This document shows, one piece after another, positions 1 to 54,400 of a stretch of 64,000 bases of DNA. Origin of the DNA: a virus. Taxonomy: Duplodnaviria > Caudoviricetes. Below the pieces are notes generated by a model. It saw only the letters and a list, made by a program, of their open reading frames with translations, had not been told where the DNA came from and did not search any database. Positions within the stretch are counted from its first letter, which is position 1. Each line of letters begins with the position of its first letter. Made by a program: the position numbers and the translations under genes. Location of the stretch: positions 225,235 to 289,234 of IMG/VR virus record IMGVR_UViG_3300035498_000877. The stretch is one strand, 5' to 3'.

Positions 1-2740
1 TAATATCGAAGGAGTAGTTCCTTTAGGAGCGGGAACTAACAGGTATGCATTCAAGTTAAATGGTTTTGTAATCAAAGTAGCAACTAATAGTGAAGGGAAG
101 CTTGATAATCTAAAAGAATTCAAAATGTGTAAGACATTATCAGCATTTGGGAATTGGGTCATTAGATGTTATGAAGTTTCTCAAAATGGAACATTGCTAG
201 TCACTGAATATGTCCAACCATTTGAATCATATTCAGAGATGATGCAGTATAAAAATGAGATAAGAGAAATTTTATCAAAAGTCTCTGATGAATATTTTAT
301 TGGGGATATTGGAATTACTTCAAAGAATTATGCAAACTGGGGATTGCGAGTAGGAACTAATGAACCAGTTTGCCTTGACTTTGCATATGTGTTTGATGTT
401 AATTCAGATATATTGACATGTAAAGTGTGCAAGGAGAATGCAATTTTATCTCCAGATGAAGATTTTAATTATCTTATTTGCACAAATCCAGCATGTAGGC
501 ATAAATATGATTTCAGTATGTTGAGATCACGAATAAGTGAATCAAGATTAAGAGCTGAGATTGGAAACTTAGAAGATGTTGGATATAAAATTAATGCTCC
601 ACAATTAGAAGTAGAACTAGATGAAACTAGATCTGCATATCTTCAAACAAAGAAGATTAAACCAAAACATGAACAAAAATTGGTGGAAGAAATACCACCT
701 GAATACAAGGAGGAAATAGAAATGACAGCAGGAATAGAAAATAAAACAAATGAAGCAGAAGTAATAATAAATGCAACAGCACGTATTGATGAAGATGAAA
801 TACAACAAGAGCAGGTTGAAAAAGGATCAATATTTGATATAAATATTGATTTAGCTGCTAGAGTATTACCAGAAGATGAAGAAGATGAGAATGAGGATGA
901 AGAAGATTATTCTGATGATGTTGAAATAGACGAAAGTTTATTAGTTTCTGAGGAAGAGTTTGAGAAACAGATTCATGAAGCAATAGCTGAAGTAGATAAT
1001 GAAGAGGCTGAAGAAGTTACAGCTAAAACTGATCCAACAATTGATGAAATAATAAACTTGGTATCTGATTCATTCTTAGATAACCAACTAACAGTAATAT
1101 CCCGTTTATCAAATTATATGGAACAGAGTGTTACTATGAGATATGATCTGTTCAATATGATAAGGAAGCATCTTAAATTTAAGATGACTGAAAATGAGTT
1201 TATGAAAGCATTTCAGAATGCAATATTCAGATCATTAATTCAGTATCTTGGAATTGAAGAGACTAAGATTACAAATGCTGATAATAAACAACAAACCAAA
1301 TTCATTCCAGTATTGAATAAGGAGAATAAGTATGAAAAAGGTAGAGAATTGGCAGATGTTATGTTAACATATGCATTTATCTCTAATCTCTGGGAATACA
1401 GATTCTTACCAAAAGTCGATATGAATCCTAACTATGATATAGTAGCATCATATAGTGAACAAGACAATGATGGATTTGCAATCCAAAGAGAGTGGGTTGA
1501 AGTATTCATAAATCGTCTCAGTTCTAAGGTGACTATAGCTCAAGATGGATTGGATATAATTTCTAGTATCATGATGAAATTATTCTGTCCTGTATATGCT
1601 CCACAGGATAATTTCATGAATCCACCTGTTGAAGATAATGAGGAAGATAATGGAATAGAAATAATTGATAATCCAGTAGAGCCAGAACCAGAGGTTTCTG
1701 ATGATACGATTTTACGTGCAGCAACTGGTGAAATTGATGAACCATCTGATCCAGTTGATATTTATGATGAAACTGTAAATAGTTTTAATTCAAGTGAAGC
1801 TGTTGAGCCAGGATATGATGAAGATCATTTGTTAATCAATACAGATGGGAATGGAATAACAGTAATCGTTAATCCTGTAGATGATGAGGACAATTATGAT
1901 CGTATCTATATTAAGTGCAATTGTCATCAGGATGAATTAGCTGCAGCTATTATTCCAATCTATGAGAAGATAGGAGAATTTGATGAGGACCAAGAAATTC
2001 CTATGGAAGGTGATCCTTCAAATTTATATCTGTCATGGTTAACTGCATTTGAACCAATTAAAGTTCATTATACTTCAAATCCAGATGCAGAAATGAGAAT
2101 AAATTATTCATATGGACAAGATGAGGAAAATCAAGTTTATATGATAAATCTTGGATATGATGAGAATAAACAGCAGTATCTGATGGGTACTTATCTAGTT
2201 AATGATATCTTCGTTGTGAATGCTGATGGAGAACCAGTTACGGCATTCGAAGAAGATTTAATGGTAAAATTAGATCTGATTATCAGAAAGAATATTGCAG
2301 GTACAGCTATATCTCATTATAAGAGAACATGGGAAGAAATTGATAGGTTATCAATGATAACAAATGAAGAACTCAATGATGAGGCTTTGGATTCAATTGT
2401 GGATATGGTTCTTGGACATGATGGTGATCAAAATTCTAATGAAAATATTGCTGAATCAGCTGAAGAGAATTCTACTCCAGATGTTAATCCACATTGTGTA
2501 ACACCTGAACAAGTAGGTTTAGACATTGATGATAGACCAGAGAATCCCAATGTAAAATCATATACTGAACCGGGAGCAGCAATTGATTATGATGGAGATA
2601 TGAAACCTGTTGAAGGATTATGGGATCCATCAACTCCTATTACTGTTACCCAGCAAAAACCAAAAACAATTGAAGAAGAAGTTGATGAGATAGAGAAACA
2701 AATCAATGAAGGTGTAATAATACATCCAATTAGAAAATAA
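1..2740 (+). CDS. Protein-kinase-like domain + Zn ribbon + long acidic C-terminal region (5'-truncated by window)
   Basis: Frame is open from position 2, upstream of the listed ATG: LGAGTNRYAF (Gly loop), VIKVA (Lys), LKEF (helix-C Glu), LLVTEYV (hinge), GDIGITSKNYANWG (catalytic-loop-like), VCLDFAY (DFG-like); then CKVC...CTNPAC and a D/E-rich tail. Confidence 0.7.
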   Translation, partial: NIEGVVPLGAGTNRYAFKLNGFVIKVATNSEGKLDNLKEFKMCKTLSAFGNWVIRCYEVSQNGTLLVTEYVQPFESYSEMMQYKNEIREILSKVSDEYFIGDIGITSKNYANWGLRVGTNEPVCLDFAYVFDVNSDILTCKVCKENAILSPDEDFNYLICTNPACRHKYDFSMLRSRISESRLRAEIGNLEDVGYKINAPQLEVELDETRSAYLQTKKIKPKHEQKLVEEIPPEYKEEIEMTAGIENKTNEAEVIINATARIDEDEIQQEQVEKGSIFDINIDLAARVLPEDEEDENEDEEDYSDDVEIDESLLVSEEEFEKQIHEAIAEVDNEEAEEVTAKTDPTIDEIINLVSDSFLDNQLTVISRLSNYMEQSVTMRYDLFNMIRKHLKFKMTENEFMKAFQNAIFRSLIQYLGIEETKITNADNKQQTKFIPVLNKENKYEKGRELADVMLTYAFISNLWEYRFLPKVDMNPNYDIVASYSEQDNDGFAIQREWVEVFINRLSSKVTIAQDGLDIISSIMMKLFCPVYAPQDNFMNPPVEDNEEDNGIEIIDNPVEPEPEVSDDTILRAATGEIDEPSDPVDIYDETVNSFNSSEAVEPGYDEDHLLINTDGNGITVIVNPVDDEDNYDRIYIKCNCHQDELAAAIIPIYEKIGEFDEDQEIPMEGDPSNLYLSWLTAFEPIKVHYTSNPDAEMRINYSYGQDEENQVYMINLGYDENKQQYLMGTYLVNDIFVVNADGEPVTAFEEDLMVKLDLIIRKNIAGTAISHYKRTWEEIDRLSMITNEELNDEALDSIVDMVLGHDGDQNSNENIAESAEENSTPDVNPHCVTPEQVGLDIDDRPENPNVKSYTEPGAAIDYDGDMKPVEGLWDPSTPITVTQQKPKTIEEEVDEIEKQINEGVIIHPIRK

Positions 2741-18446: not shown

Positions 18447-21400
18447 TAAAATATTCATGGATGAAGATACATACTATTTGAATGATGAAAAAATAAAAGT
18501 AATCAAGAAAGATGGTACTATACAAAACTTCAATCCCGAGAAAATAATTATTGCAGTAGATAAATCAGCAAGTAGAATGATGAAGAAATTAACTGCTGAG
18601 CAGAATAATAATCTAGTTCTAATGGTATTAAATGAGATTCAAGAAATGAATCAATCACAAATACAGATTGCTGATATGCATAAAATAATGGAAAAAGTAT
18701 TGGAGCAGTTTGATCCAGTGATTGCTAAATCATATAAAGACTATAGAAACTATAAAGTTGACTTTATTAATATGATGGATGCAAGTTATCGTAAGAGTCA
18801 ATCTATTAGATTCATTGGTGATAAGGATAATGCCAATACTGACTCAGCATTAGTAGCAACTAAACGTTGTTTGATATTCAATGATTTCAATAAACGATTA
18901 TACAGAAAATTCTTTATGACAGTAGATGAACTCCAAGCATGTAATGATGGATACATTTATGTACATGATCAATCTGCACGACTTGATACGATGAACTGTC
19001 TATCACGATCAACCAAATTTATTACGGATCAAGGAATTAAATCATTTTATGATTTTGATGATGGCGATACAGTCTGCGTAATATCTCATAAAGGAATATG
19101 GAGAAATGCAACAGTACATTCATATGGAGAACAACAGGTCCATACTGTAGTATTTGAAAGATGTGATGAAGGTTTAACTATACCAGTAGAAGTAACTCCA
19201 AATCATAGATGGATATTGCAAGATGGATCTGTAACTACAGATTTGAAAGTTGGAGATATAACATGGCCTACTCCAGAAAATCCATTTACTCCTAGTGAGG
19301 GTCATGGTTTAGGATGGAAAGTAATATGTATTACTTCTGAATCAACTAAGAATAAAGTATGGTGTCTTGATGTTGAAGAAGATCATAGTTTCTTATTAGA
19401 ATATGGAATTCCAACTGGAAATTGCTGCCTCTTTGATGCAGAAAATGTGATGAAAAATGGATTTGAAATGGGTAATATATGGTATAATGAACCTAACTAT
19501 CTTGATACTGCATTTGATGTATTGGGTGATATTATATTATCAGCAGCATCCCAACAGTATGGTGGATTTACTGTACCTGAAGTAGATAAATTATTATCAC
19601 CATATGCATCTAAATCATACTATAGATATTATGATGAGTATATAGAACAGATAAATGATTTAGTAGATGATGATACTGTTGAAGTAAAAGTTCCATATGG
19701 AAGAATATACAATAAAGCTGATGTATATGCAATGAAGAAAGTAACAAGAGAATTTGAACAAGGATTCCAAGGAATAGAAATGAAACTAAATACTGTTGGT
19801 AGTAGTAGAGGTGATTATCCATTTATAACTATGACATTTGGATTAGCCACTGATAAGTTTGGTAAGTTAGCAAGTTCTACTTTCTTAAAGGTACATATGA
19901 ATGGTCAAGGAAAACCAGGATTCAAGAAACCTGTTCTATTTCCTAAACTTGTATTCTTATATGATGAAAATTTACATGGAGAAGGAAAAGAGAATGAAGA
20001 CATTTATGAGTTAGCAATTGAATGTTCTTCTAAAACAATGTATCCTGATTGGTTATCATTGACTGGAGAAGGATATGTTCCATCTATGTATAAGAAGTAT
20101 GGAAGAGTTATATCGCCTATGGGTAAGTGCATATTAGCCCATGTAAAACATCTTCAAACCAATTGCTTGTTGGGTGTGGCTTAATAAAGCTGCTAACAGA
20201 TAGGTCTTAGGGAGAAGAGATTTGATGATCTGAGATGAAGCTGTGCCAAGCCTCTATAAAGAGGAAAGGTCAATCGACTAAACGTGATGAGTGTAGCGTT
20301 GTAGGGTTGGAGATAAGCACCAACTCCAAAAGGAGATGCCCGTTGATGGATTTGGCAAATCTGGAGGGAAGAGATAGTCAGTATATATGGTGACATATAA
20401 TAATACGTGTAGAGCATTTCTATCACCTTGGTATGAGAGAGGTGGAATGAAACCTGCTGACGATGACGATAAACCAGTATTTGTTGGTAGGTTTAATATT
20501 GGAGCAGTATCATTACATTTACCAATGATATTAGCAAAATCAAGAAAAGAGAATAAAGACTTCTATGAGGTACTAGATTATTATCTAGAGATGATTAGAG
20601 GAATACATAAACGTACATATGATTATTTGGGAGAGATGAAAGCTAGTACAAATCCTCTAGGATACTGTGAAGGTGGTTTCTATGGTGGACATCTAAATCC
20701 TCATGATAAGATTAAACCAATATTGAAACCAATGACTGCATCATTTGGTATTACAGCATTAAATGAATTACAGCAGCTATACAATGGAAAATCAATTACA
20801 GAAGATGGAGAATTTGCATTAGAAGTAATGAATTACATAAATTACAAAGTTAATAAGTTTAAAGAGGAAGATGGATATCTATATGCATTATATGGAACAC
20901 CAGCTGAATCATTATGTTTTACTGGTGATACATTAGTAAATACTGAAAATGGAACTACTAAGATATCTGAACTTAAAGAGGGAGATAAAGTATATTCATA
21001 TAATAATGAAACTAAAGAGATAGAATTAAAACCTGTTGGAGCAGCTAGAGAAACTAGAAAGGAAGCAGTTGTAATTAATTTAACTTTCCAGAATGGAACT
21101 ATAGTTGAATGTACGCCTGATCATCCTTTTGGAGCTATAAATGCATATGGTGAACTTAAATGGGTTAAAGCAGAAGACTTAAGAAGATTCCACAAAGTAA
21201 AAACCATTAATGGATTCACAAAGATACATGATATACAAAGAGTATTAAAATTGCAGACTGTATACAATATAGAAGTAGAAGATAATAATAACTACTTTGT
21301 CGGTGGTGATGATGCAATATTAGTACATAATTGTGGACTACAAATAAAACAATTCAGACAGTTATATGGTATAGTAGAAAATGTTTCTGATAGACCATAT

Positions 21401-22228
21401 GTATCTAATTCATTCCATTGTCATGTATCAGAAGATATAGATCCAATAGAGAAACAAGATCTTGAGGGAAGATTCTGGAATCTATTTAATGGTGGTAAAA
21501 TACAATATGTCAGATACCCTATAAGCTATAATAAAGATGCTATAAAGACATTAGTTAATAGGGCTATGAAGAAAGGATATTATGAAGGAGTAAATCTTGC
21601 ATTGGGATATTGCGATGATTGTGGGCATCAAGAACTTGAAATGGATGTATGCCCTAAGTGCGGAAGTAAGAACCTTACTCTTATATCAAGAATGAATGGT
21701 GAAGGAAATTATGTTATGACATATTGCCATTCTAAAATTAATTGAATTGCTGGGAGTTCCTTAGAGCCTAAATAACCGCAGCTAGTAGTGATACATAGTG
21801 TAGCAGATAGTATAACGACTATCGGATGGTAAAATCATTTAGGATTGGATAATCATAAGCAGCGAAGATACTGAATACAGTATAACGTTCAACGACTATC
21901 GACCAGCTATAGTGTTCGAGAAATACGGCACCAATATAGTCAGTAGAGTACACCCTAAGCTAATGAGGGATCTAGAAGTGGAATGTCTAGATGGTGAACT
22001 GGAAGTGGTTAACTAAGAAGATATAGTCTCAACTGTGTAATTTTTATATTACACACCTCATGTTTGAGATAACATGTTGTCCTATGAGAGTAGGAGCTGC
22101 ATTAAGTTGCGATATACATTTTGCGAATGTATATGAAGAAATTGTATTTGTCATATTCAAGAGTTCATGGAGATACTAGATTGAATGATGCTAAGATGGC
22201 TGAGATAGCTGATAGAAAAAGCATGTAA
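18427..22228 (+). CDS. nrdD: Class III ribonucleotide reductase; exons 18427-20124, 20408-21700, 22145-22228; two inteins (1024-aa precursor, about 743 aa mature)
   Basis: ATP cone, YVHD, N|CCL, QYGG, PVLFPKL, SPMG|CRAFL, TPAESL|C, CDDC/CPKC, SRMNG|YLSYSRV glycyl-radical loop restored by splicing. Confidence 0.93.
18997..19422 (+). mobile_element. Mini-intein 1 in NrdD (142 aa)
   Basis: Begins CLSRSTKF, has VTPNHRW block B, ends VWCLDVEEDHSFLLEYGIPTGN before Cys; removal restores TMN-CCL. Confidence 0.9.
20125..20407 (+). mobile_element. Group I intron (283 nt) in nrdD
   Basis: Exon end ATGGGT pairs with IGS GCCCAT; TCGACTA/GATAGTC P7 pair; ends ...TAATACG before TGT AGA (CR). Confidence 0.9.
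20915..21331 (+). mobile_element. Mini-intein 2 in NrdD (139 aa)
   Basis: CFTGDT start, ECTPDHPF, VYNIEVEDNNNYF...LVHN before Cys. Confidence 0.92.
21701..22144 (+). mobile_element. Group I intron (444 nt) in nrdD, directly after the glycyl-radical Gly codon
   Basis: GAATGGT pairs with IGS GCCATTC; AATTGCTGGGA, GCAGC, TTCAACGACTA, AAGATATAGTC; ends ...AATTG before TAT TTG. Confidence 0.92.
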
Positions 22229-32308: not shown

Positions 32309-35300
32309 GTGAATACAATGTCGAGAGATTCTAAACAAACAGATCCTCTTCAGAATTTATATTCCGACATAAAGAAAATTCTAAGTTTCACAGAGTTCAA
32401 AGATTTAAAGAAAGCAAATGCTAATGAAATATCATCCGAATCAGGTAATGTTGAGATGTGGATGAATTTAAAGTTGGGAAGAGATTCATATTTAACATAC
32501 ACAAAGTATTGGGATATCGCTATGTTCCAAGAAGTACTTCCAACAATTAAATGGAATAACTATCAATATTTCTTAGCTAATCCATATAATGTACCTTTAG
32601 ATTTCAGGGATAACTTATTAACTAGAGGAAGAGAAAGATTTCTTGCTGAGTATGAAGAGAAAAATAATTATTATAGAACATTATATGGATTACCTCCATA
32701 TGGTACTAATAAATCAGATTATATCTATTTATCTTCTAAAGTACGAAACCAATTACATGCATCAGAATTACCAGTTCATGAGTTATCTACTTTGATTCAG
32801 AATAATTATATTAATACTGATGAATATAAACAAGTATTAGCTGATAATCCTGATAAAGAATATCTTAAATACTTGGGTATGTATAAAATTGATCCATTTA
32901 CTGCTCGTAATGCAAAAGACTTTGATATTATTAGATATCCACTTGATCGAAATGATATAAATGAGAATCTATTAAATAGATTTGCTGCTATATATGCTGA
33001 TTGCCGTGAATATATAATGGTAGCTATTTATAATAGTCAACTTGAAGATATTTACACAGGATATAGAGATTTTATGAAGTTTCTAATACTAATGTATACT
33101 TTCCTTCAGGTTAATAATGCTGCAGTAGAATCAATTCATAATAAAAAATTCTTTGATGATTCAATATTGCATATATACTTATCAATATTTGGAATACCAG
33201 ATAATCTATCATTGACCAATGATGTGCGTAGAGACTTAGCAATCAATATGTGCAAGTTGATAAAAGAAAAAGGTACCAATGAAGTTTATTATGATTTAAT
33301 AAATTTATTAGGATATCAGGATGTTTCAGTTAGTAAGTTAATGTTAGTTAAAGGGCAACAATTTGATTCAGATAATAATTATATGGCATTATCTGAAGAT
33401 GATTCTAATTTCACATCAGTATCTGATATTGAAAATAAGAATATTAAAACTGATCCTTACTTTATTAAAGTAGACTTAACCGATGATGACCCATATAATA
33501 CTATAGTAAATTGTGATGCTCCTACATATTCATATCATGATATAGTTGATTCAGATCCTACTTGGTGGGATTTATCTGATACAAGAGAAATATTGTCAGC
33601 CAATAATTATAGTATTGCAGATTCAAAATATATTATGATAGAATCAACTATTCATCAGATGGAGTATATTACTGAAGCTATTTATTTCATGAGAATGGTA
33701 TTGGATAATAAAGAATCAACGGATGACTTTTATATGCAGTTACCAGAATTATTAGGAACATCAACTGTGTCAATATATGATGCATTAGTATTCATTTTAT
33801 GTGCAATGTGTATGAGCAATAATCTCAAAGGCACTATTATCAATGATGAAGAGAATTTATATGCAGTAGCTGGATTTAACTTTAATATGGATTATGATTC
33901 ATTTGAGGAGTATTTAAATTCTACTGAATATGTTGATAAGGAAAGAGTTATTGAATTCTTAAACAATCTTACTATGACAGATGAATCTGATATTAATAGA
34001 TTATTTAATGATGTAATAATTCCTATGAGAGAATGGTTAGAGCATAAGATAGAATCAACTACTATCAGAGAAGAGTATATTGAATATGAAAATATTTATA
34101 GAGCTTTATATACTTATGATATTAATTACAATACATTCTATGATGATTTTGAAATGCCATTGGAAATAATAGAAAAAGATAATGATATATCTGAAGAGGA
34201 TATGGAAGCATATAAATATTTCTATCCTCATAAATTAGCAGGTGGGCATGTAACTGTTGATGACTATAGTACATCTTCTTATAAGTATCCATTTCTTGAA
34301 AGAAATTATAAACCTACATGGTACATTCATATAGTAATAGAGACACCACAAGGAGAAGATGATCGTGGATATTTATATTTCTATGATGTATTGAATTGTG
34401 ATGATGTTAAATTATTAACTAATGATGATGGTACTAGAATATTTATGGACTATAATGATTCTGATGTAGGATGGGTAGTAAATCAGAAGGCAGTTAATAG
34501 AGCATTATATTTGATTGACCAATTAGATGAAACTGAATTATCTAAAGCATATTTCCAAATAGATACTCCAATACCTAATAGTGGTGGCAAACATTATGAT
34601 ATGGGAACTAAACTTCCTGCATCTATCCGCAATGGTACATATAAAAATGTACTTAAATCCAAAATTGAAATGGATATCAATGGATTATGTGATAAACCAA
34701 CTACTTATTTGGAGTATTTATATAGAAAGAATGAATCATTATATAATATTCTAATGGAAGATGATAGATTCAATACAAATAAAGACGCTTGGCTTGATGA
34801 TGTTTTGAAAGTAGTATTAGCTGTAGAAACAGAATTAGATTTACATATGAAATATTTCGAACAGTCTGTAGTAGGAACATCCTTATTCTTTAAACCATTA
34901 ATTACTTTGATTAAATACTTCAAATCAACTTTTGTTAATTTTGCAAAAACTGAATTCAACTATATTTTTGATGATAAAATGGATGCAGGTGGTAATTGTA
35001 ATATGATTAAATTATTTGATGAAGTATTATTTAAAATTCATTTTGTAACATTAGGAAATACTGGATATGAATCCCAATTAGGTTTCTATGATGCTATTCA
35101 TAAAATGACTAAACATATATTGATGAAAGATAGATCTACATTGATGAATAAATCAATAAATATATTTGAGGAATCTGGAAAACCAATACGAATGGGTTCT
35201 GTTGGATTAGTAGATGAAGTTAAATTCTATAAGAATGGAACTGAATTAGATCCCGATGGAAGTAAAGCATATTGGATTCATGGAGAAGATAATTCATATA

Positions 35301-35392
35301 CTTATTTAATGAATAATAGAGATAGTAAAGAAACTGTACAAAATGTTGATTTAGAAGGATGGAAAGACTATGTAGTATCATACAATCCATAA
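32309..35392 (+). CDS. Large virion structural protein, possibly baseplate
   Basis: 1027-aa ORF; KEKGTNEVYYDLINLLG resembles baseplate-wedge KGT motifs; lies upstream of a fibre gene. Confidence 0.45.
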   Translation: MNTMSRDSKQTDPLQNLYSDIKKILSFTEFKDLKKANANEISSESGNVEMWMNLKLGRDSYLTYTKYWDIAMFQEVLPTIKWNNYQYFLANPYNVPLDFRDNLLTRGRERFLAEYEEKNNYYRTLYGLPPYGTNKSDYIYLSSKVRNQLHASELPVHELSTLIQNNYINTDEYKQVLADNPDKEYLKYLGMYKIDPFTARNAKDFDIIRYPLDRNDINENLLNRFAAIYADCREYIMVAIYNSQLEDIYTGYRDFMKFLILMYTFLQVNNAAVESIHNKKFFDDSILHIYLSIFGIPDNLSLTNDVRRDLAINMCKLIKEKGTNEVYYDLINLLGYQDVSVSKLMLVKGQQFDSDNNYMALSEDDSNFTSVSDIENKNIKTDPYFIKVDLTDDDPYNTIVNCDAPTYSYHDIVDSDPTWWDLSDTREILSANNYSIADSKYIMIESTIHQMEYITEAIYFMRMVLDNKESTDDFYMQLPELLGTSTVSIYDALVFILCAMCMSNNLKGTIINDEENLYAVAGFNFNMDYDSFEEYLNSTEYVDKERVIEFLNNLTMTDESDINRLFNDVIIPMREWLEHKIESTTIREEYIEYENIYRALYTYDINYNTFYDDFEMPLEIIEKDNDISEEDMEAYKYFYPHKLAGGHVTVDDYSTSSYKYPFLERNYKPTWYIHIVIETPQGEDDRGYLYFYDVLNCDDVKLLTNDDGTRIFMDYNDSDVGWVVNQKAVNRALYLIDQLDETELSKAYFQIDTPIPNSGGKHYDMGTKLPASIRNGTYKNVLKSKIEMDINGLCDKPTTYLEYLYRKNESLYNILMEDDRFNTNKDAWLDDVLKVVLAVETELDLHMKYFEQSVVGTSLFFKPLITLIKYFKSTFVNFAKTEFNYIFDDKMDAGGNCNMIKLFDEVLFKIHFVTLGNTGYESQLGFYDAIHKMTKHILMKDRSTLMNKSINIFEESGKPIRMGSVGLVDEVKFYKNGTELDPDGSKAYWIHGEDNSYTYLMNNRDSKETVQNVDLEGWKDYVVSYNP

Positions 35393-45124: not shown

Positions 45125-45880
45125 ATGATTAGTGATGGAAAGAAGTTTGATACAAATGTATTTTTTTCTGGTGGTGCTGGTATGTTTATACAATATCATG
45201 ATATTGTGAAACCAGCATATTTTTATGCCATCATTAAGATGATTTGTACTAATACGTCATATGGTCTTCCAATAGATATCATAAATAAAATGTCTGCATT
45301 TTCTTTGATAGAATGGTATAAAAATAGGAGATATAAAAATCCATTACAATGTTTAGACTTTAAACATTCGATACCTCAGGAAGATCTAGATAATCTATTA
45401 CAGCAAATTTTACTAACAGATGAGTCTATTTATAAGGTAGCTCCTGCACTCAATATTGAAAAAATGATGCAGGTATACCGTAGGGAGCATATGTCATTTC
45501 CAATCTATATCTATAGTGTCCAAGAAGAGCCATATATACTTACTGACTGTAAGGAAGTATTTAGGGGGATAAGTGTAAAATATATTTATGGAGATCTGAA
45601 GGAAGCAATTAAGAAATGTGATCAAAATTTCACTTATATATTTTCTGATATAGAGTTGGTAAAAATGGCAGCTGAGATACTTGTAGGTACATGCTCTCAT
45701 GTTTTATTAGCCCAAGATTATCGATATAATTATATTGATAATTTTAAGACATTAAAGTATGATCTGAAAAGTATAGCAGATGCTCATCCATTCATTCGGT
45801 TAGGCACCACAGTATCGATGAATTCTGCCGACTTAGCTATATCATTAATAGAGTTAATGGATATAGGAGGAGGATCATAA
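45125..45880 (+). CDS. Hypothetical protein
   Basis: 251-aa ORF; stop overlaps the next start (TAATG). Confidence 0.75.
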   Translation: MISDGKKFDTNVFFSGGAGMFIQYHDIVKPAYFYAIIKMICTNTSYGLPIDIINKMSAFSLIEWYKNRRYKNPLQCLDFKHSIPQEDLDNLLQQILLTDESIYKVAPALNIEKMMQVYRREHMSFPIYIYSVQEEPYILTDCKEVFRGISVKYIYGDLKEAIKKCDQNFTYIFSDIELVKMAAEILVGTCSHVLLAQDYRYNYIDNFKTLKYDLKSIADAHPFIRLGTTVSMNSADLAISLIELMDIGGGS

Positions 45881-48800
45881 TGTTACAAGTTAATGCACTA
45901 AAACCAACCGAGAAACCTGTTGAACAATTAAAACGTTGGAAGTACAAGAAACATGCATTTCCAAATGGAGCTGAATCATATTGGATTAAATGGAAATTAT
46001 ATCCAGATGATGCTAGATTTTTCTCTGCACCGAAAACGATGATAATTAAGTTCGACAAGGAATTGTCACACGTTAACAATGAAAACATCTCTGCACTCAA
46101 TGAGTGGAAAGTATCTAAAATATCCTATTCCACTTACCTACCAACTATGTGTGAAGAGTTGAATTTCTTTGAAACAATGTATGATCAGGAAGGAGAACTA
46201 ATCACAGCACTATTTAGAATTAAATACCTTATAGATGGAGATAATGTATCTTATACTATGAAGAACTTTGAAGCATTCAAAGATATTTGTTATAAGACTA
46301 TATTCACAGACTCCATCAAGGAAAAGATCATCAAGATGGTAGAAGAAAATTATGTTGATGACATTGAAGCTGAAAATATTAAAAACATGAAAAACCCAGA
46401 TATGTTATCTATTATGCAACGCAAAAAGAAATCATTAGAATTTCTGAATGTCCATGTAAAAGCAATGCTAAAGATATCATTCTGTATAAAAATATTGTCA
46501 TTTGTAATTAATCATTTTGCAGTAATGAGATCTATCAACATACAAAAGAATATAGATATCTTTTATCAATTCTATGTAGATACATTCTATATATTTGATT
46601 TTGATTTTGATATCTACAATAAGATATACGCCTGAAACACACGGGCATACTTCTTTAATTGCCGGAAGTTCCTTAGAGCCTAAATAACTGCAGCTAGTAG
46701 TGATATATAGTGTAGCAATATACATAACGGTATATGGATAGTAAAATCATTTAGGATTGGATAATCAAAGGCAGCTAAATAACTATTAATGATACGAATT
46801 ATATATTATAAAAGAAAGGAGGTTAAATATCATGAAAAATAAAGATAAATGTAAATTGATATGTCAAGATTGCGGAGCAGAATTCTACTTACAATATGGA
46901 TGGGTTAAGAAATTTCCATCTAATCATCATTGGAGATGTAAACATTGTAGAATCGAATATCATAAGTTATGGCATAAAAATATGGATCCTGAAAGAAAAG
47001 CTGCAGTATCTAAGAAAATGTCAGAAAGTGCAACAAAACGTTGGAAATCAATGACAGATGAAGAATATAAAAATATGTGCGAAGCTATGTCTAAAGGTGA
47101 TGTAAAATATTGGTCTAATTTGCTTGATGAAGAATATGAAGCTAGATGCAAAGTCAATCAAATGATTCAAGATAATTTATCTGATGAGAAAAAGAAAATT
47201 CGCTCAGAAAAGATATCAAAAGCTCAGGCAGAACGATGGAAAAATATGAGTGATGATATGTATGATTACATGTGTGAAAAATTATCCGAAGCAGCCCATT
47301 TGTATTGGGATAATATTACAGATGAAGAACTGAATAAACGAAAAGAAGATATGTCAATTAGATCTAAATCATTCTGGAAGAATATGACTAAGAAAGAATT
47401 TGAAGAATGGTGCATCAAACAAATGAAACGTCGAAAGGAAAACTTTACAAAGAATGAATTAGATTTTATGAAAATCTTGAATTTGTATAATATTAATTAT
47501 GAAGCACGTGTTTGTAGTACAATAATTCATCCAGATTTTTATAAATTATTTCCTAGAAATCCAATAATGGATAATGAACATGTAGTTCCATACCATGAAT
47601 GGGATTTCAAATTAAATTTAATAGATAAAAGTATATTTATTGATGTTGATGGGAGTATACATGATCCTCAAAAAACTAATTATCAAGTTGAATATTATAC
47701 TGGTAAGATGTTTAAAAAATCAGATTATATTCAATTCAATGATTCTCAAAGACCATATCAAACTGATGGTTTAGATTCATATATAATATTAGTTTATGAT
47801 GATAATTTAACTATGGATTGCATAGTTAAAAATGTATCCAATGATGATACAATGAAATTATCTGAATTTATTAGTTTGATTTATGCAAATAATTTGACAG
47901 ATAAAGAATTAAAAGAAATTATAAAAGTATCAAATAATAGTTAGAAGTTCAACGACTATCGACCAACTATAGTGTTCGAGAAATACGGCACCAATATAGT
48001 TAGTAGAGTACTTACCAAGCTAATGGGTTATATAACAATGGAATGGTTATATGTAAAAGGAAATGGGAAGCTAGAATATTAGTGATATAGTCTCAACGAC
48101 CAATAGGTCCTTCATACTTGAAATAGTATGTCGTTATGTGAGAGCATAAGCTGCATTAAGTTGCGATATACATTTTGCGAATGTATATGAAGATAATTGA
48201 TGTGGAGAACAAAGTAAACAGTTCTTACAATTTTAACAAAGCCATATTCCAACAACAAGAGATTGACTTTCAGTCTCACCTCTCATAATTGCGGAGAACT
48301 CTCGTTAAGTCAATACTACCAAATTACTATAGTGATATAAGTAATGGCAAGAGGTAATATCTCAAGGTATGGTAAAAAGGTATTGAATAGAGACAACCGT
48401 CGCAGCTAAATTAATCTAATAATTAATAGTTATATATTATTGAAAGAAAGGAGGTAATCAATATGATTAAAAAATTAAAAATTAAAAGTAACAATTCAAC
48501 CAAATCTACTAAAGATTCAGAATCATCAATGGAAGAACTATTGAAGTGTTCAGCATTTTCAGTTGATGAAGAAGCTGACTATATCAAAAAATTCTCATCA
48601 TTAACACCTGAGAAGAAAATTGCTTTACTTAACTATATCTTCAATGAATCTATTCCAGAGCAATTAAATATTCCATTTAAGAATCCATTCTATATTAGAG
48701 ATAAAGAATTTCTTAAAATGTATGAAGATGGATACAAAAATGAAGTATATGAAATGATAGTCATGAATGATTTGAAGAAAAGTGATTTAATGGCTACTCG

Positions 48801-50411
48801 TACATATGTAAGCAAAAAGGTAGATCCAAGATTTTATGAGTTATTTTCACCCAATCCAATATATCCAGCATTTGGAATGAGCCCAACATATTCATGGGAT
48901 ATCTTAGTACGTACTATAGACGGAGATATATTAGTTGATGTTGATGGTCCAATCCATAATGAAGAACTTGTTACCGATACACTCACTTATGATGACAAGT
49001 ATCAACTTAAAATTATTGATTATATTCGTCTTAAAGAATTACAGAGGTTATATCAAACTGATGGGCTACAAGCATATACAATAAGATGTATTAATGGAGA
49101 AATTACTGATGAAACTCCTGTAATTGATATTTATACAAATAAAGAAATGACTTATAAAAGTTTCATTGGATACTTAGAATGGACAAGTTTATCAATTGAA
49201 ACACGATCATGCATAATACTTGATGATGAAGAAGAATTAGATTAATATGTTCAACGACTATCGACCAGCTACGTATATGGACTAATAACCTATACAATGT
49301 AGTCAGTAGAGTAAATCCCAAATCACCAATGGGGACTGTAATTCTTGGAAGGAAACAGAGTAATTTGAAACGAGAGGCCCCGTATATTTAATAGTAGAAT
49401 ATACGGGGAAGATATAGTCTCAACAACCAATAGGTTCTTCAATTGTGGAATTCAATTGTCGTATGCCGAGAGGCATAGCAGAGTTAAAAGCTCGATATAC
49501 ATGTTGTGTATGTATATGAAGATATTTGTGAAGGCAAGGATAAAAGTATTATTATCGATCAGATACTCCGAAGGAACTGCGTAATCGATAATTTCATCAA
49601 ATTTTCCCTACCTAAGACATGGAATAAGGTTAAAGAGCAACCAAATGAGAGAGTACTATCATTCTTATGTAGTATTGTAAATACACATATATCAATTTTC
49701 ATTATGCAGGTGTTTAGAAGAAATCTCATCGAAACTTCAATAGTTCCTGATGTTGATGGAAATAGTAAGAATGATAGATACAGAGCTTCTAAGATGAAGC
49801 TAAATGAAGAATATGTAATCACATGTACTATGGATATGAATAATCTAACTAAGGATCTGTTTAAACGTTACGAAAGTGAAATATCTATAGAGGAATTAGA
49901 TTACTATCGAAGAAATCTAAAACCTAGTAGATTACATCAGCTGATGATAGAAATTTATTTCTTTAATTATACATCATCAGCATCAGAGTTTGCACTACTT
50001 CGAAATATGGATTGGTACAAGCTATTATTAATCATGAGAAAAGATATCATGAGAAGATTTAATGTTACAAAAGATTCGTTATTAGATTCATCACTGGTAC
50101 TATTATTGACATCTAATATTGAGGAAACACCAGTAGGTGAGAAAATGTATATTAAAGATACTAAGTATCTCAAAGACAATGAAACCTACAACTATCTTGT
50201 TGATCACTATTACAGTACTATCGTAAGTATCAACGAGGACATCATCAAGAAGTTTTTAATTACCTTCGTCAATAGTAAATATACATTCGTATTATATGAA
50301 CACAAAGAACTATTTGGCGAAGAGGTCTCAATGAATAAGAGAGATCTAATAGATCGTTTATTAGACTTCCTTGTTTTAGCAAATACCAACATATCGTTGG
50401 ATAACTTTTAA
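45880..50411 (+). CDS. Probable sigma-like promoter-specificity subunit of non-virion RNAP (AR9 gp226/phiKZ gp68-like); exons 45880-46633, 48200-48263, 49529-50411 (566 aa)
   Basis: Splicing gives one frame: ...YNKIYA|YVENKV...QQQEI|EGKDK. The N-terminal IKFDK..ISALNEW.VSK.SY pattern resembles my recollection of AR9 gp226; it lies near beta-prime. Confidence 0.65.
46802..46809 (+). promoter_or_regulatory. TATATT(A/C)T putative phage early promoter motif (representative of 11 copies)
   Basis: Also at 7574, 15535, 22285, 24422, 27930, 41392, 48433, 52478, 57749 (+) and 61552-61559 (-), each shortly upstream of an RBS; resembles the phiKZ early consensus TATATTAC. Confidence 0.6.
46832..47944 (+). 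CDS. Intron-encoded endonuclease (Zn ribbon, Trp-containing helical repeats, Vsr/EDxHD-like domain)
   Basis: CQDC/CKHC, repeated W(K/S/D)(N/S)(M/L/I)(T/S/L)DE units, EWDF...IDVDGSIHD. Confidence 0.7.
   Translation: MKNKDKCKLICQDCGAEFYLQYGWVKKFPSNHHWRCKHCRIEYHKLWHKNMDPERKAAVSKKMSESATKRWKSMTDEEYKNMCEAMSKGDVKYWSNLLDEEYEARCKVNQMIQDNLSDEKKKIRSEKISKAQAERWKNMSDDMYDYMCEKLSEAAHLYWDNITDEELNKRKEDMSIRSKSFWKNMTKKEFEEWCIKQMKRRKENFTKNELDFMKILNLYNINYEARVCSTIIHPDFYKLFPRNPIMDNEHVVPYHEWDFKLNLIDKSIFIDVDGSIHDPQKTNYQVEYYTGKMFKKSDYIQFNDSQRPYQTDGLDSYIILVYDDNLTMDCIVKNVSNDDTMKLSEFISLIYANNLTDKELKEIIKVSNNS
48264..49528 (+). mobile_element. Group I intron B with nuclease ORF
   Basis: GAGAT pairs with IGS GTCTC; TTCA can pair with 3' exon TGAA (P10); core elements present; terminal G at 49528. 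Confidence 0.88.
48463..49245 (+). CDS. Intron-encoded endonuclease, paralog of 46832
   Basis: SWDI...VDVDGPIHN...QRLYQTDGL matches EWDF...IDVDGSIHD...QRPYQTDGL. Confidence 0.7.
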   Translation: MIKKLKIKSNNSTKSTKDSESSMEELLKCSAFSVDEEADYIKKFSSLTPEKKIALLNYIFNESIPEQLNIPFKNPFYIRDKEFLKMYEDGYKNEVYEMIVMNDLKKSDLMATRTYVSKKVDPRFYELFSPNPIYPAFGMSPTYSWDILVRTIDGDILVDVDGPIHNEELVTDTLTYDDKYQLKIIDYIRLKELQRLYQTDGLQAYTIRCINGEITDETPVIDIYTNKEMTYKSFIGYLEWTSLSIETRSCIILDDEEELD

Positions 50412-50431: not shown

Positions 50432-51127
50432 ATGGAATACCTGAACATTTATTTCGATTCAGAATTTACTGGATTGAGAAAAGATACAGAGCTTATTAGT
50501 TTAGGATTCGTATCAGAAAGCGGGGCTACTTTCTATGCTGAATTCAATGACTTTAGTATGAAATATGTAGATGAATGGATAACAAAGAATGTTATAGATA
50601 ATCTAGTTATGTTCATAAAGAGTGTACGGGAATTAGGATTAGTAGATCCATATACTTGCTTTAAGAAAACTATCAATCATACTAATCATTATAACACTCA
50701 GATGTTATCAAATAAAACTAATATTGCTAATGAGCTACAAGATTGGCTAAACAATGAATACGCATTAGCAAATAAAGAAATCAGATTTATATCAGATTGC
50801 TATGCATATGACTGGATGTTATTATGTGATTTGATGTGTGATGATGGATGTGCAATCAATACTATTCCTAATACATCATATATTCCAATTGATCTATCTA
50901 CTATGCTGTATATGAATCAAATTGATCCAGATGTCAACAGAGAAGAATTTATTGGAAATGAAACATGTAATTCAATTGAAACAACAATGTTGAAGTTGAA
51001 ATTATTTGAACATACTAGTTTCAAATCAATTAAACATAATTCATTATGGGATGCATATGTAATCAAAGCAGCATGTGAGAAAGTAATTAGTATGCCCAGA
51101 GTAGTACCATGGGGTAGTTTGGGATAA
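50432..51127 (+). CDS. DEDDh 3'-5' exo(ribo)nuclease (Rv2179c-like)
   Basis: YFDSEFTGL, YDW, HNSLWDA. Confidence 0.85.
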   Translation: MEYLNIYFDSEFTGLRKDTELISLGFVSESGATFYAEFNDFSMKYVDEWITKNVIDNLVMFIKSVRELGLVDPYTCFKKTINHTNHYNTQMLSNKTNIANELQDWLNNEYALANKEIRFISDCYAYDWMLLCDLMCDDGCAINTIPNTSYIPIDLSTMLYMNQIDPDVNREEFIGNETCNSIETTMLKLKLFEHTSFKSIKHNSLWDAYVIKAACEKVISMPRVVPWGSLG

Positions 51128-51432: not shown

Positions 51433-54400
51433 ATGCGAATTAAGTTTTCACGTATTAATTTCGAAGAAATGTGTGCATGGGACATTATTAATGACAAAGG
51501 ATTTTTAATTAATGATACACCATTTGCAGACATTGACAAATCAATACGTAACATGGATGGACCTAGATCACCACGATTTGGTACTACCTATGGAGATACA
51601 AATGAGTTCATGGACAGATACAGATGTGATTGTGGTAAAACATTTGGAGCAGCATTTGAAGGAGAAAAATGTCCTCACTGTGGACATATTGTAGAGTACA
51701 AAGATGTAGATATGTTATACACGGCGTATTTGAATTTTTATCCGTTTCACGTAATCAACCCGCTGATGTACCATAGGCTGCAGTCGGCATTATCTAAAAA
51801 GAACTTAGAAAATATTATATCAAATGAAAATATAATTACATCTGCTGGTATAATAAGAAAACATAATGATCAGATAGAAGTAAAGAAATCTATGTTATTG
51901 TATCATAACATTGGATTGAAAGAATTCTATGATAATTATGAAGAGATTATGGAGTATTATAAATCTAAGAGAAAGATAAAAGCTGATTTAATAGATCAAC
52001 TAATTAGAGATAAAGATTTAGTATGGACATCCAAGATTCCTGTATATAGTACTACATTAAGACCAATGGGAATATCATCTGAATCTTATTTCTTTAATTC
52101 ATTAGATAAACAGATATATCCATTGACAAATATCTCACTGAATCTGAGAAAAGCATCTGCCATTGAAGTTCCATTATATTTGTATCAGGCACAGATGAGA
52201 GTTAATGAATTATGGAATCTTAACTTTTCTCTTATTGATGGAAAATATGGATGGATACGATCTCAAGTACTTGGCGGTGAGTTCAATTATTCGAGTGAAT
52301 TTAAATGGCCCGTCACTTCGTAATTGCTGGAACGCCTTCAGAGCCTAAATAACCGCAGCTGGTGGTGACATGCAGTGTAGCAGATAGTATAACGACTATC
52401 GGATGGTAAAATCATTTAGGATTAGGTAATCATAAGCAGCTAATTAACTATCTTAAATTATAAATTAAATCTGGTAATATATTATAAAAGAAAGGAGGTA
52501 GATATCATGAAAGATAAATTAACTAAAAAATTACTTAAAGATCAAGAAAAAGAATTAAACAAAAGATCTATGGAATTATTTGGCAAATGTTATGCTGAGT
52601 TAATGATTGCTGAGATTACTAAATTAGATCAGTATATGAAAGATTTAGCCAATCCACAATGGAAACGAGTGATAATCGATAATATAGTTACTTCTTATGA
52701 AGTTAATAATGTTGGTGAAGTCAGAAATATAAATACTGGGCATATTAAAGAACACCAAATAAATCAAGATGGATATAACCGCATTTCAATGTGGTATAAT
52801 AATAAACAAAGGAAATTCCAGAATGTTCATAGATTAGTTGCAATAGCTTTTATTCCTAATCCAGAAAATAAACCTCAAGTAAATCATAAAAATGTCAATA
52901 AACAATGTAACTGGGTTGGTAATTTAGAATGGGCTACTGCTAGCGAAAATCAAATTCATGCATATATTCATGATCTTCATATTCCAAAAACTGGTACTGA
53001 ATATTGGAATTGCAAACATACAGAAGAACAAGTTCATCAAGTATGTAAATTGCTTGAAAGATCTATTCCAATAAATAAAATTGCTAATAAGCTAAATGTT
53101 ACTGAAGCATTTGTCATTGGAATAAAATATGGTAATTGGGGATATATTCGTGCCCAGTATGATATTCCTCCATCAAATACTTATGGAGATAGAACCCAAG
53201 AGCAAGTTGATATAATAAATAACTTGATAAGGAATGGGTGTAGAAATAGGAAATATATACTTAGCCAAGCAGGTTTACCAGATACCAAGACTAATATATC
53301 ATACGTGAAATATCGTATTAAAATTTATAATGAGATAGCTAAAGGTTCAACGACTATCGAATGCTCAGATGCTGGAAGAAATACCACATCATAAGTACTC
53401 GTTACCCCCTAAGCCAATGAGGGCCAGTAAGCGTGAGCAGCTGGAGTAATGGGAAGTGAAGTGCTCTATATATTTGGTAATAGAGTATATAGGGAAGATA
53501 TAGTCTCAACTACAGAAATGTACTTCATACTTGAAATAGTATGTCGTCTACTGAGAGGTAGAGAAGCATTAAGTTGCTGCTAGTATGTTGCGAATACTAG
53601 TGTAAGATATTGCGTGCAGTTATAGTTCTTGATCCAACTCTTCATATAGATGAAGTAGATGTATCATATAAACAATTTATAGTTCAATATAAAGGATTAA
53701 TAATAAAACATATTATAGCAGATAAAGGATGGACTGTTACAAAGACATCAAATTATTTAGCATCTAAATTCAAATTTGATGAATATGTATACAGTATCAT
53801 GTGTAAAATAATTGAAGAAGAATGCCCGAGGTTGATACTCAACCGCAATCCTCAACATGTGGGATAAACTGACCTAATTGCGGGAATATCTTGTTAGACT
53901 TATACTACTAACTTTAGATAGCAATATACTAAAGGGCAATGGGTAATTCCAAAGGTATAGTAAAAAGGTATAAGATAGAGACAATCGACGCAGCGAAGTA
54001 TCTATTAATAGATATGAGTTCAACGACTATCCCATTGGATTCTATATGAATCAACAGGAGTACGGCTACAAGCTAATGGTAGCGGGTGAAATTCCCTTAA
54101 TTGGAAAAGGCAGCTCTAATATTATTAGAGAGATATAGTCTCAACTGTAGAAATACACTTCATACTTGAAATAGTATGTCGTCTACTGAGAGGTAGAGAA
54201 GCATTAAGTTGCTGCTAGTATGTTGCGAGTACTAGTGTAAGATAATGACAATTACATTTGGTAGTATTTTACTAATGAAAATACGGAAAGTAAAGATGGA
54301 TGCAAATGACTACACATTAGCGATTCCATCAGCAATTTTACCGGGTCAACAGGCGGCCCATCCTCTCTTATATGCGGGAAAGCATTGTGCCTAACAATGG

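Follow-up and report, generated by a model that had tools for sequence, protein, structure and literature searches.

Nuclease-bearing mobile group I introns have been described in the RNA polymerase (RNAP) genes of the phages AR9 and PhiPA3, where they interrupt homologues of the β/β′ subunits and encode HNH enzymes; in AR9, the annotation of g270 joins two pieces that enclose the HNH gene g271. In Staphylococcus phage Twort, a single gene, orf142, is reportedly interrupted by several group I introns with short exons between them, as Landthaler and Shub are said to have found in 1999. The intron endonuclease of PhiPA3 (gp210) acts in competition between phages (PMC11620839). Here we describe a comparable arrangement in an uncultured gut giant phage, known from a 289,234-bp IMG/VR record that is rated complete (IMGVR_UViG_3300035498_000877). 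We analysed the last 64 kb of this record (henceforth referred to as the window; G+C ~30%), in which positions 45880-50411 of the + strand hold four open reading frames (ORFs) of 251, 370, 260 and 301 amino acids (aa), none of which belongs to a Pfam or PHROGs family. We consider that they very probably represent one gene of the family of AR9 gp226 and phiKZ gp68, the sigma-like subunits of phage RNAPs, interrupted by two mobile group I introns. As in AR9 and PhiPA3, the introns bear nuclease genes and lie in an RNAP gene of the phage itself; here, however, the interrupted gene is sigma-like and the nucleases have a PD-(D/E)xK/Vsr-like fold. The window gene shares with Twort orf142 the presence of multiple introns, but the host gene differs and both window introns bear ORFs.

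A search for longer relatives of the 251-aa ORF retrieved 109 uninterrupted proteins of 523-576 aa with 67-85% identity over the query; their metagenome contigs are of gut type and reach ~290 kb. Intact homologues of 564-570 aa match the window as three pieces in the same order. One of them, the intact 568-aa homologue P0001, served as the reference for exon mapping. By tblastn, its residues 1-250 corresponded to 45880-46632 of the window (85% identity), residues 273-564 to 49530-50405 (79% identity), and residues 252-273 to 48202-48267 (18 of 22 residues identical, E 7e-07 in a search of the 64 kb). Within ±36 nt of these boundaries, we considered every donor/acceptor pair with U at position -1 and with G as the base preceding the 3′ splice site, and the translation of each join was scored against P0001; the top-scoring joins were 46633/48200 and 48263/49529. 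The three exons so defined (Table 1) add up to 754+64+883 = 1701 nt, that is, 566 codons and a stop (TAA at 50409-50411) without internal stops, and residues 1-565 of the spliced product align to residues 1-564 of P0001 with 82% identity and one gap. The ATG of exon 1 overlaps the stop codon of the upstream ORF (TAATG) and has AGGAGGAGG upstream. In the unspliced RNA, the TGA at the start of intron 1 would end translation after 251 aa, while retention of intron 2 would lead to a stop after 280 aa, and skipping of the 64-nt micro-exon would shift the frame and lead to a stop after 269 aa. A sequence-only reading of the window had proposed two nuclease-bearing introns around a 64-nt exon and a spliced product of 566 aa; all five elements lie where it placed them, and the open frame and the end-to-end alignment with P0001 bear out the predicted product. 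A profile search of the whole 289-kb record found these gene pieces only, and the genome thus has no second copy of the gene. A megablast search with the locus and tblastn searches with both large exons gave no match among 50,697 deposited phage records.

Table 1. Features of the interrupted gene and its introns (nucleotide positions in the window), and intron sites in the same gene of the window and its relatives (codon positions)
Feature	Position	Strand	Remarks
ORF, 251 aa	45880-46635	+	first large piece of split gene
ORF, 370 aa	46832-47944	+	inside interruption 1
ORF, 260 aa	48463-49245	+	inside interruption 2
ORF, 301 aa	49506-50411	+	last large piece of split gene
Exon 1	45880-46633	+	codons 1-251, last one contributing first base only
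Exon 2 (64-nt micro-exon)	48200-48263	+	codon 251 (bases 2-3) to 272 (bases 1-2)
Exon 3	49529-50411	+	codon 272 (third base) to stop; linker and C-terminal domain
Intron 1	46634-48199	+	1566 nt; ORF in P6 loop; terminal G48199
Intron 2	48264-49528	+	1265 nt; ORF in P6 loop; terminal G49528
Intron 1 P1	46630-46633/46643-46646		GCCU/GGGC, 4 bp; U46633.G46643 pair, U46633 being the final base of exon 1
Intron 1 P10	46638-46641/48201-48204		CACA/UGUG, 4 bp, into exon 2
Intron 1 P3	46650-46655/48065-48070		6 bp
Intron 1 P4	46661-46663/46770-46772		
Intron 1 P7	47954-47959/48087-48092		GACUAU/AUAGUC
Intron 1 P8			present
Intron 2 P1	48259-48264/48272-48277		GAGAUU/AGUCUC; U48263.G48273 pair
Intron 2 P10	48268-48272/49529-49533		UUUCA/UGAAG, 5 bp, into exon 3
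Intron 2 P3	48279-48284/49372-49377		6 bp
Intron 2 P4	48291-48293/48401-48403		
Intron 2 P7	49256-49261/49414-49419		GACUAU/AUAGUC
Intron 2 P8	49378-49387/49399-49408		10 bp
Intron site	codon ~172		L025
Intron site	codon 251		window; L025 at or adjoining
Intron site	codon 256		L016, L021/L022
Intron site	codon 267		L015/L018, L019
Intron site	codon 272		window
Intron site	codon 274/275		L017, L020/L023
Intron site	codon ~290-300		L019, L025
Intron site	codon 333		L012-L014; 354 nt

The sequences of both interruptions support their assignment as group I introns, which would be removed by splicing at the joins given above. Both contain the strings AAUUGC(G/C)GG at J3/4-P4, GUUCAACGACUAUCG at J6/7-P7 and GAUAUAGUC at P7′, which are typical of the phage group I core, and the parts of the two introns that flank the ORFs align with each other. 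All named helices (P1, P10, P3, P4, P7 and P8) show full complementarity in both introns, and P3 and P8 were recovered in an unconstrained minimum free energy fold of the ORF-deleted intron 2 RNA. Both cores are also 73-87% identical to introns that Rfam calls. Intron 1 has a paralogue without an ORF at 21742-22144, which matches its two core halves with 87% and 76% identity and is called as RF00028 at 21675-22054 (25.6 bits, E 2.5e-4). The core of intron 2 is 73-86% identical to other introns, among them an ORF-less intron in the same gene of a relative (L017), which is located within a few bases of the site of intron 2, has an Rfam score of 55 bits and shares 73-79% identity with the core of intron 2. 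With complete core pairings in both and ORF-less siblings called by Rfam, the intron assignment of the sequence-only reading was supported. RF00028 has eight matches genome-wide, and the two introns are members of a family that litters this genome: an RNAP subunit gene that starts at 51433, 1 kb downstream (labelled ‘beta’ in PHROGs, phrog_2987, E 2e-20), has three introns called by Rfam at 55, 38 and 35 bits, and the paralogue of intron 1 directly follows an ORF (20387-21745) resembling the anaerobic ribonucleotide reductase NrdD (phrog_487, E 2e-88), whose gene probably continues past that intron. No tRNA was found inside the introns of this locus or of ten related loci.

The relationship of the spliced product to AR9 gp226 became apparent only at the level of alignments. 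Neither phmmer searches with single exons nor a profile of close homologues matched gp226 or gp68 in the PDB, and against AR9 gp226 as a lone sequence the family reached an hhalign probability of only 5.7%. When the family was compared with an alignment of six gp226 members (AR9, from its GenBank record, together with BpSp, LPJP1, Machias, SA1 and phiR1-37), hhalign gave 98.7% (E 4e-16 over 450 columns), and with a wider 48-sequence alignment, to which relatives of 20-31% identity had been added by an exhaustive HMMER search with exon 3, it gave 100% (E 1.4e-43 over 456 columns). An hmmsearch of the PDB with this wide profile retrieved AR9 gp226 (7s01_A, E 1.2e-52, residues 10-462), a match that appeared only because the 20-30% identical relatives had been added to the profile. 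Structure prediction was carried out with AlphaFold2 (AF2) on P0001, which is 82% identical to the spliced product and was used as its proxy. The model (predicted local distance difference test, pLDDT, 85) has two helical domains joined by a linker, and Foldseek matched it best to 7s01_A (E 4e-15), then to 7um0_A (E 6e-12) and 8que_B (E 1.3e-05), each with a probability of 1.00, unrelated matches beginning at E 0.3. The global template-modelling (TM) score of the model to gp226/gp68-type structures was only 0.43-0.52, a value to be expected if the domains sit differently. We read 8que_B, chain B of the phiKZ non-virion polymerase, as gp68 from its modelled lengths of 495 and 203 residues; in the phiKZ apo enzyme only the C-terminal domain of gp68 is resolved, which fits the 203 residues in 7OGP (PMC7618050).

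Overall, the resemblance to AR9 gp226 and phiKZ gp68 that the sequence-only reading had suggested holds for both proteins, and the results support the view that the spliced gene encodes the sigma-like promoter-specificity subunit of a non-virion multisubunit RNAP, which by homology would bind the core enzyme and act in promoter-specific initiation. The RNAP subunit gene 1 kb downstream indicates that the split beta/beta′ core for such a subunit is encoded in the genome as well. Its homology to AR9 gp226 (PDB 7S01, 7UM0 and 7UM1) extends over the full length, and the two share the helical two-domain layout and the motif N..I(F/W).Q.EI.G around helix 2.1bis; they differ in sequence (~19-20% identity), in length (the window protein is ~100 residues longer) and in gene structure, the AR9 gene being annotated as a single uninterrupted coding sequence (CDS). 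With phiKZ gp68 (chain B of PDB 8QUE, 9RJS and 7OGP), the third-ranked Foldseek match, the position of sigma and the two-domain organisation are common (PMC7618050), but even the wide profile gave no match at the sequence level. In Listeria phage LPJP1 (L003) the gp226 homologue consists of two CDSs (13-1161 and 1240-1635) that lie 78 nt apart, a gap too short for a group I intron and perhaps due to a frameshift or a sequencing error.

The 64-nt exon falls in the part of the protein by which the AR9 enzyme reads its promoters. In AR9 gp226, helix 2.1bis (residues 205-214) bridges the polymerase claw (Fraser et al., PMC9209446) and forms, with the beta-N subunit, the pocket that receives the -10 uracil, which is obligatory; there V206 and I207 touch the base, Y210 stacks on -9G, and V206 excludes thymine, which the V206G enzyme accepts (PMC9209446). 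Profile alignments, in which the AR9 numbering is the true numbering minus one since the reference lacks the start codon, place micro-exon codons 251-272 opposite gp226 residues ~192-213. In the AF2 model of P0001 a long helix (244-262) is followed by a short one (264-272) that aligns with AR9 205-213, where the isoleucine, the aromatic residue and neighbouring positions are kept. N263, I266, F/W/Y267, Q269, E271, I272 and G274 are among the most conserved positions of the 48-sequence alignment. By alignment, then, the micro-exon is predicted to encode the end of a sigma-2.1-like helix and the promoter-reading helix equivalent to AR9 2.1bis. The position equivalent to Val206 varies across the wider family, with alanine in the window and serine in its close relatives; given these residues and the acceptance of thymine by the AR9 V206G enzyme, we infer that the polymerase of the window clade would not require uracil in its promoters.

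We next compared the same gene in relatives taken from IMG/VR (29 loci encoding homologues), in which the presence of introns differs from site to site, as mobile elements would lead one to expect, with none to several per gene and eight or more sites overall (Table 1). The gene is uninterrupted in five close relatives (L007-L011). Junctions are approximate for L017, the first gap of L019 and gaps two and three of L025. Of the eight sites in close relatives, five lie in a stretch of 25 codons (251-275) out of 568, a distribution far from uniform, although this interval was picked post hoc. In this clade of phages, the sigma-like gene is a hot spot for introns. The sequence-only reading had called it an unexpected homing target on the grounds that such subunits are poorly conserved; this did not stand, as the protein is 65-89% identical within the clade, the helix between the window introns is the best conserved in the protein and critical to its function, and the many more introns that recur in the gene of relatives contradict the idea of an unlikely target. 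In the papers searched we found introns described for catalytic RNAP subunits only and none for a sigma-like gene, which is no proof of novelty.

Some of the relatives show further peculiarities. The ORF-less intron of L017 (6816-7280, at codons 274/275) begins with TGA and ends with ATG, such that its exons are separately translatable; the base before its 5′ splice site is apparently C and not U, and no convincing P1 could be drawn. In L025 (8441-9332) a gap of 871 nt at codon 251 leaves about eight helix codons unaccounted for, owing perhaps to a deletion or to a further micro-exon concealed there; searching the gap for motifs revealed no micro-exon. A distant homologue (39% identity) in L029 (6669-9130) and L030 (6669-8233) is interrupted by 1.6-2.4 kb with three to four tandem intron cores, three of which exceed the Rfam gathering score in L029, and there must be several micro-exons between these cores.

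Each intron ORF has the Shine-Dalgarno-like sequence AAAGGAGG a few bases ahead of its start, and a C-terminal domain is common to both (34% identity over 117 aa, E 1e-19). In the 370-aa ORF of intron 1, a putative homing endonuclease, this domain is preceded by an N-terminal Cys4 zinc ribbon and Trp-containing helical repeats, both of which are absent from the 260-aa ORF of intron 2. Related phages have homologues of 370-470 aa within or adjacent to their introns; one homologue (470 aa; L011:3790-5202) precedes a sigma-like gene without introns by 0.8 kb and is either free-standing or inside an intron of the upstream gene. In an alignment of eight members, W145, D146, D159, D161, G162, H165, R195, Q198, T199 and D200 (numbering of the 260-aa ORF) are invariant, and the ribbon and conserved-Trp repeats open all members but the 260-aa ORF (seven of eight). 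One family member shows a weak match to the STPR DNA-binding repeat. Pfam and PHROGs searches found no family, NUMOD or helix-turn-helix (HTH) motif in the intron ORFs, and the profile of the nuclease family returned zinc-finger noise only from the PDB. Likewise, AR9 g265 (annotated as Hef-like) was rejected as a relative, since hhalign matched the zinc ribbon only, with 13% probability.

Structural comparison was more informative. In the AF2 model of the 260-aa ORF, the C-terminal domain has a pLDDT of 80-97 and the N-terminal 90 residues are below 50. With the C-terminal domain, Foldseek ranked archaeal Hjc resolvases at the top (probability 0.99), followed by other PD-(D/E)xK nucleases, with I-Ssp6803I at rank 50. 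VIA-align gave Z-scores of 7.8 and 7.3 for Hjc, 7.0 for the catalytic domain of I-Bth0305I (3r3p_B, 97 of 98 residues aligned), 6.1 for Vsr (1cw0_A), 5.9 for I-Ssp6803I and 5.8 for the DUF559 protein 3hrl_A; for the intron 1 ORF, the ESM Atlas leads were DUF559, DpnII and DUF723. The model thus clearly places the predicted C-terminal domain in the restriction-endonuclease-like (PD-(D/E)xK) superfamily, a fold class to which known homing enzymes belong, and the proposal that both introns bear nucleases finds its support in this match and in the domain that their ORFs share. I-Bth0305I, an EDxHD enzyme (PDB 3R3P), is, like the window nucleases, encoded in a phage group I intron; its nuclease domain and that of Vsr superpose on the window domain, which has the Asp/His-rich motif DxDGxxH...QTD. 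D146, D159, D161, H165 and D200 could correspond to the E-D-x-H-D motif, but no sequence search links the window nucleases to 3R3P or Vsr, and Hjc scores equally or higher; membership of the EDxHD family is not established. The N-terminal parts differ as well: that of I-Bth0305I has NUMOD2/HTH motifs (PMC3239194), whereas the window nucleases have the zinc ribbon with Trp repeats, or neither.

Taken together, we propose that the pre-mRNA would self-splice by two guanosine-initiated transesterifications at each intron, joining ...GCCU/AUGUGG... and ...GAGAU/UGAAGG... to yield the 566-aa protein, while the intron ORFs would be translated from their own ribosome-binding sites and would act, or would once have acted, as homing endonucleases on intron-less alleles of co-infecting relatives, where a cut near the insertion site would be repaired by copying the intron in. 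The introns lie on both sides of 22 codons for the predicted counterpart of the AR9 helix at the -10 pocket, and homing elements favour sequence that is conserved and indispensable in this way; in mechanism, this would be the homing of introns, of the ordinary type, into an essential and conserved site. Several points weigh against this proposal. Rfam RF00028 calls neither intron, even at E up to 1-10, a miss that we attribute to the 0.8-1.1-kb ORF inserts in the P6 loop, and P1 of intron 1 comprises 4 bp only. Sequence searches matched the intron nucleases neither to I-Bth0305I or Vsr nor to a Pfam or PHROGs family, and structural Z-scores of 6-8 are only moderate. No near-identical intron-less allele was found among the homologues, the best having 85% aa identity, which gives no indication of recent homing. 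Finally, the 260-aa ORF, unlike its relatives, has neither zinc ribbon nor repeats and may be an N-terminally reduced, possibly inactive derivative that perhaps no longer works as a homing enzyme.

Given that the subunits of jumbo-phage RNAPs are often split (PMC7598289), the 251-aa and ~300-aa products might instead assemble as separate polypeptides, like the split beta and beta′ subunits of such phages, with the 64-nt piece left unused, and the TGA and ATG at the ends of the L017 intron would in principle permit separate translation of the halves there. We regard this as extremely improbable for the window: the group I cores are complete, P1 and P10 form exactly at the joins that restore the sequence of the homologues, the 64-nt piece keeps 18 of 22 residues of the best-conserved helix of the family, no Shine-Dalgarno-like sequence is visible ahead of the in-frame GTG at 49506, and 109 homologues are without interruption. 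That the introns splice but are immobile, one or both ORFs being decaying or domesticated remnants, seems to us somewhat unlikely. It would fit the loss, in intron 2, of an N-terminal architecture found in all seven aligned homologues, the low pLDDT of the N-terminal 90 residues of this ORF, its restricted occurrence (the exact sequence on 4 contigs only, the sole other relative found being 32% identical) and the many sibling introns without any ORF; both ORFs are, however, intact, have strong ribosome-binding sites and retain every invariant residue of the nuclease domain, and that of intron 1 has the full architecture. A role of the introns as a timer, by which splicing would regulate or delay the late-promoter specificity subunit, appears quite improbable, even though all late transcription would hinge on two splicing events here and on more in the neighbouring RNAP gene: intron number and position vary freely among close relatives, from none to several, with no intron in the gene of L007-L011, a pattern that fits selfish mobility better than a conserved regulatory design. 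Returning to homing as the preferred reading, its most far-reaching version would be that 75 bp of the promoter-reading helix are a contested homing hot spot across a clade of gut jumbo phages (at least 5 sites, codons 251-275), that the nucleases constitute an undescribed homing-endonuclease family, and that they serve, like PhiPA3 gp210, as weapons that, by cutting the specificity-factor gene of a co-infecting rival, disable its late transcription; as a whole we hold this to be unlikely.

Two other regions of the window were noted. Directly after the sigma-like gene, 50432-51127 encodes an RNase H-like/3′-5′ exonuclease (phrog_2259, E 9e-39), for which the Pfam Rv2179c-like match sits at the cut-off. 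By tblastn, the C-terminal part of the sigma-like protein weakly resembles 34712-35083 (29% over 146 aa, E 1e-4), inside a 1027-aa ORF at 32309-35392; the genome-wide profile search with the sigma-like family did not report it, and it is possibly due to chance.

As a split gene, this locus exemplifies once more what mobile introns are known to do, and it adds a micro-exon whose alignment makes it the promoter-reading helix, a gene that is an intron hot spot, and nucleases that, as modelled, are restriction-endonuclease-like. For the phage itself, two ‘hypothetical’ ORFs and an unannotated 64-nt exon would become its single late-promoter specificity factor, and, for the same reason, many uncultured jumbo phages will have such a factor that gene callers overlook. 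The mobile introns here target a sigma-like subunit besides the catalytic RNAP subunits, and specifically the helix predicted to read the -10 element, in line with the rule that indispensable sequence is where homing elements settle. The polymorphism between intron-bearing and intron-less alleles, together with an uncharacterised nuclease family, offers material for testing intron-mediated competition between phages.

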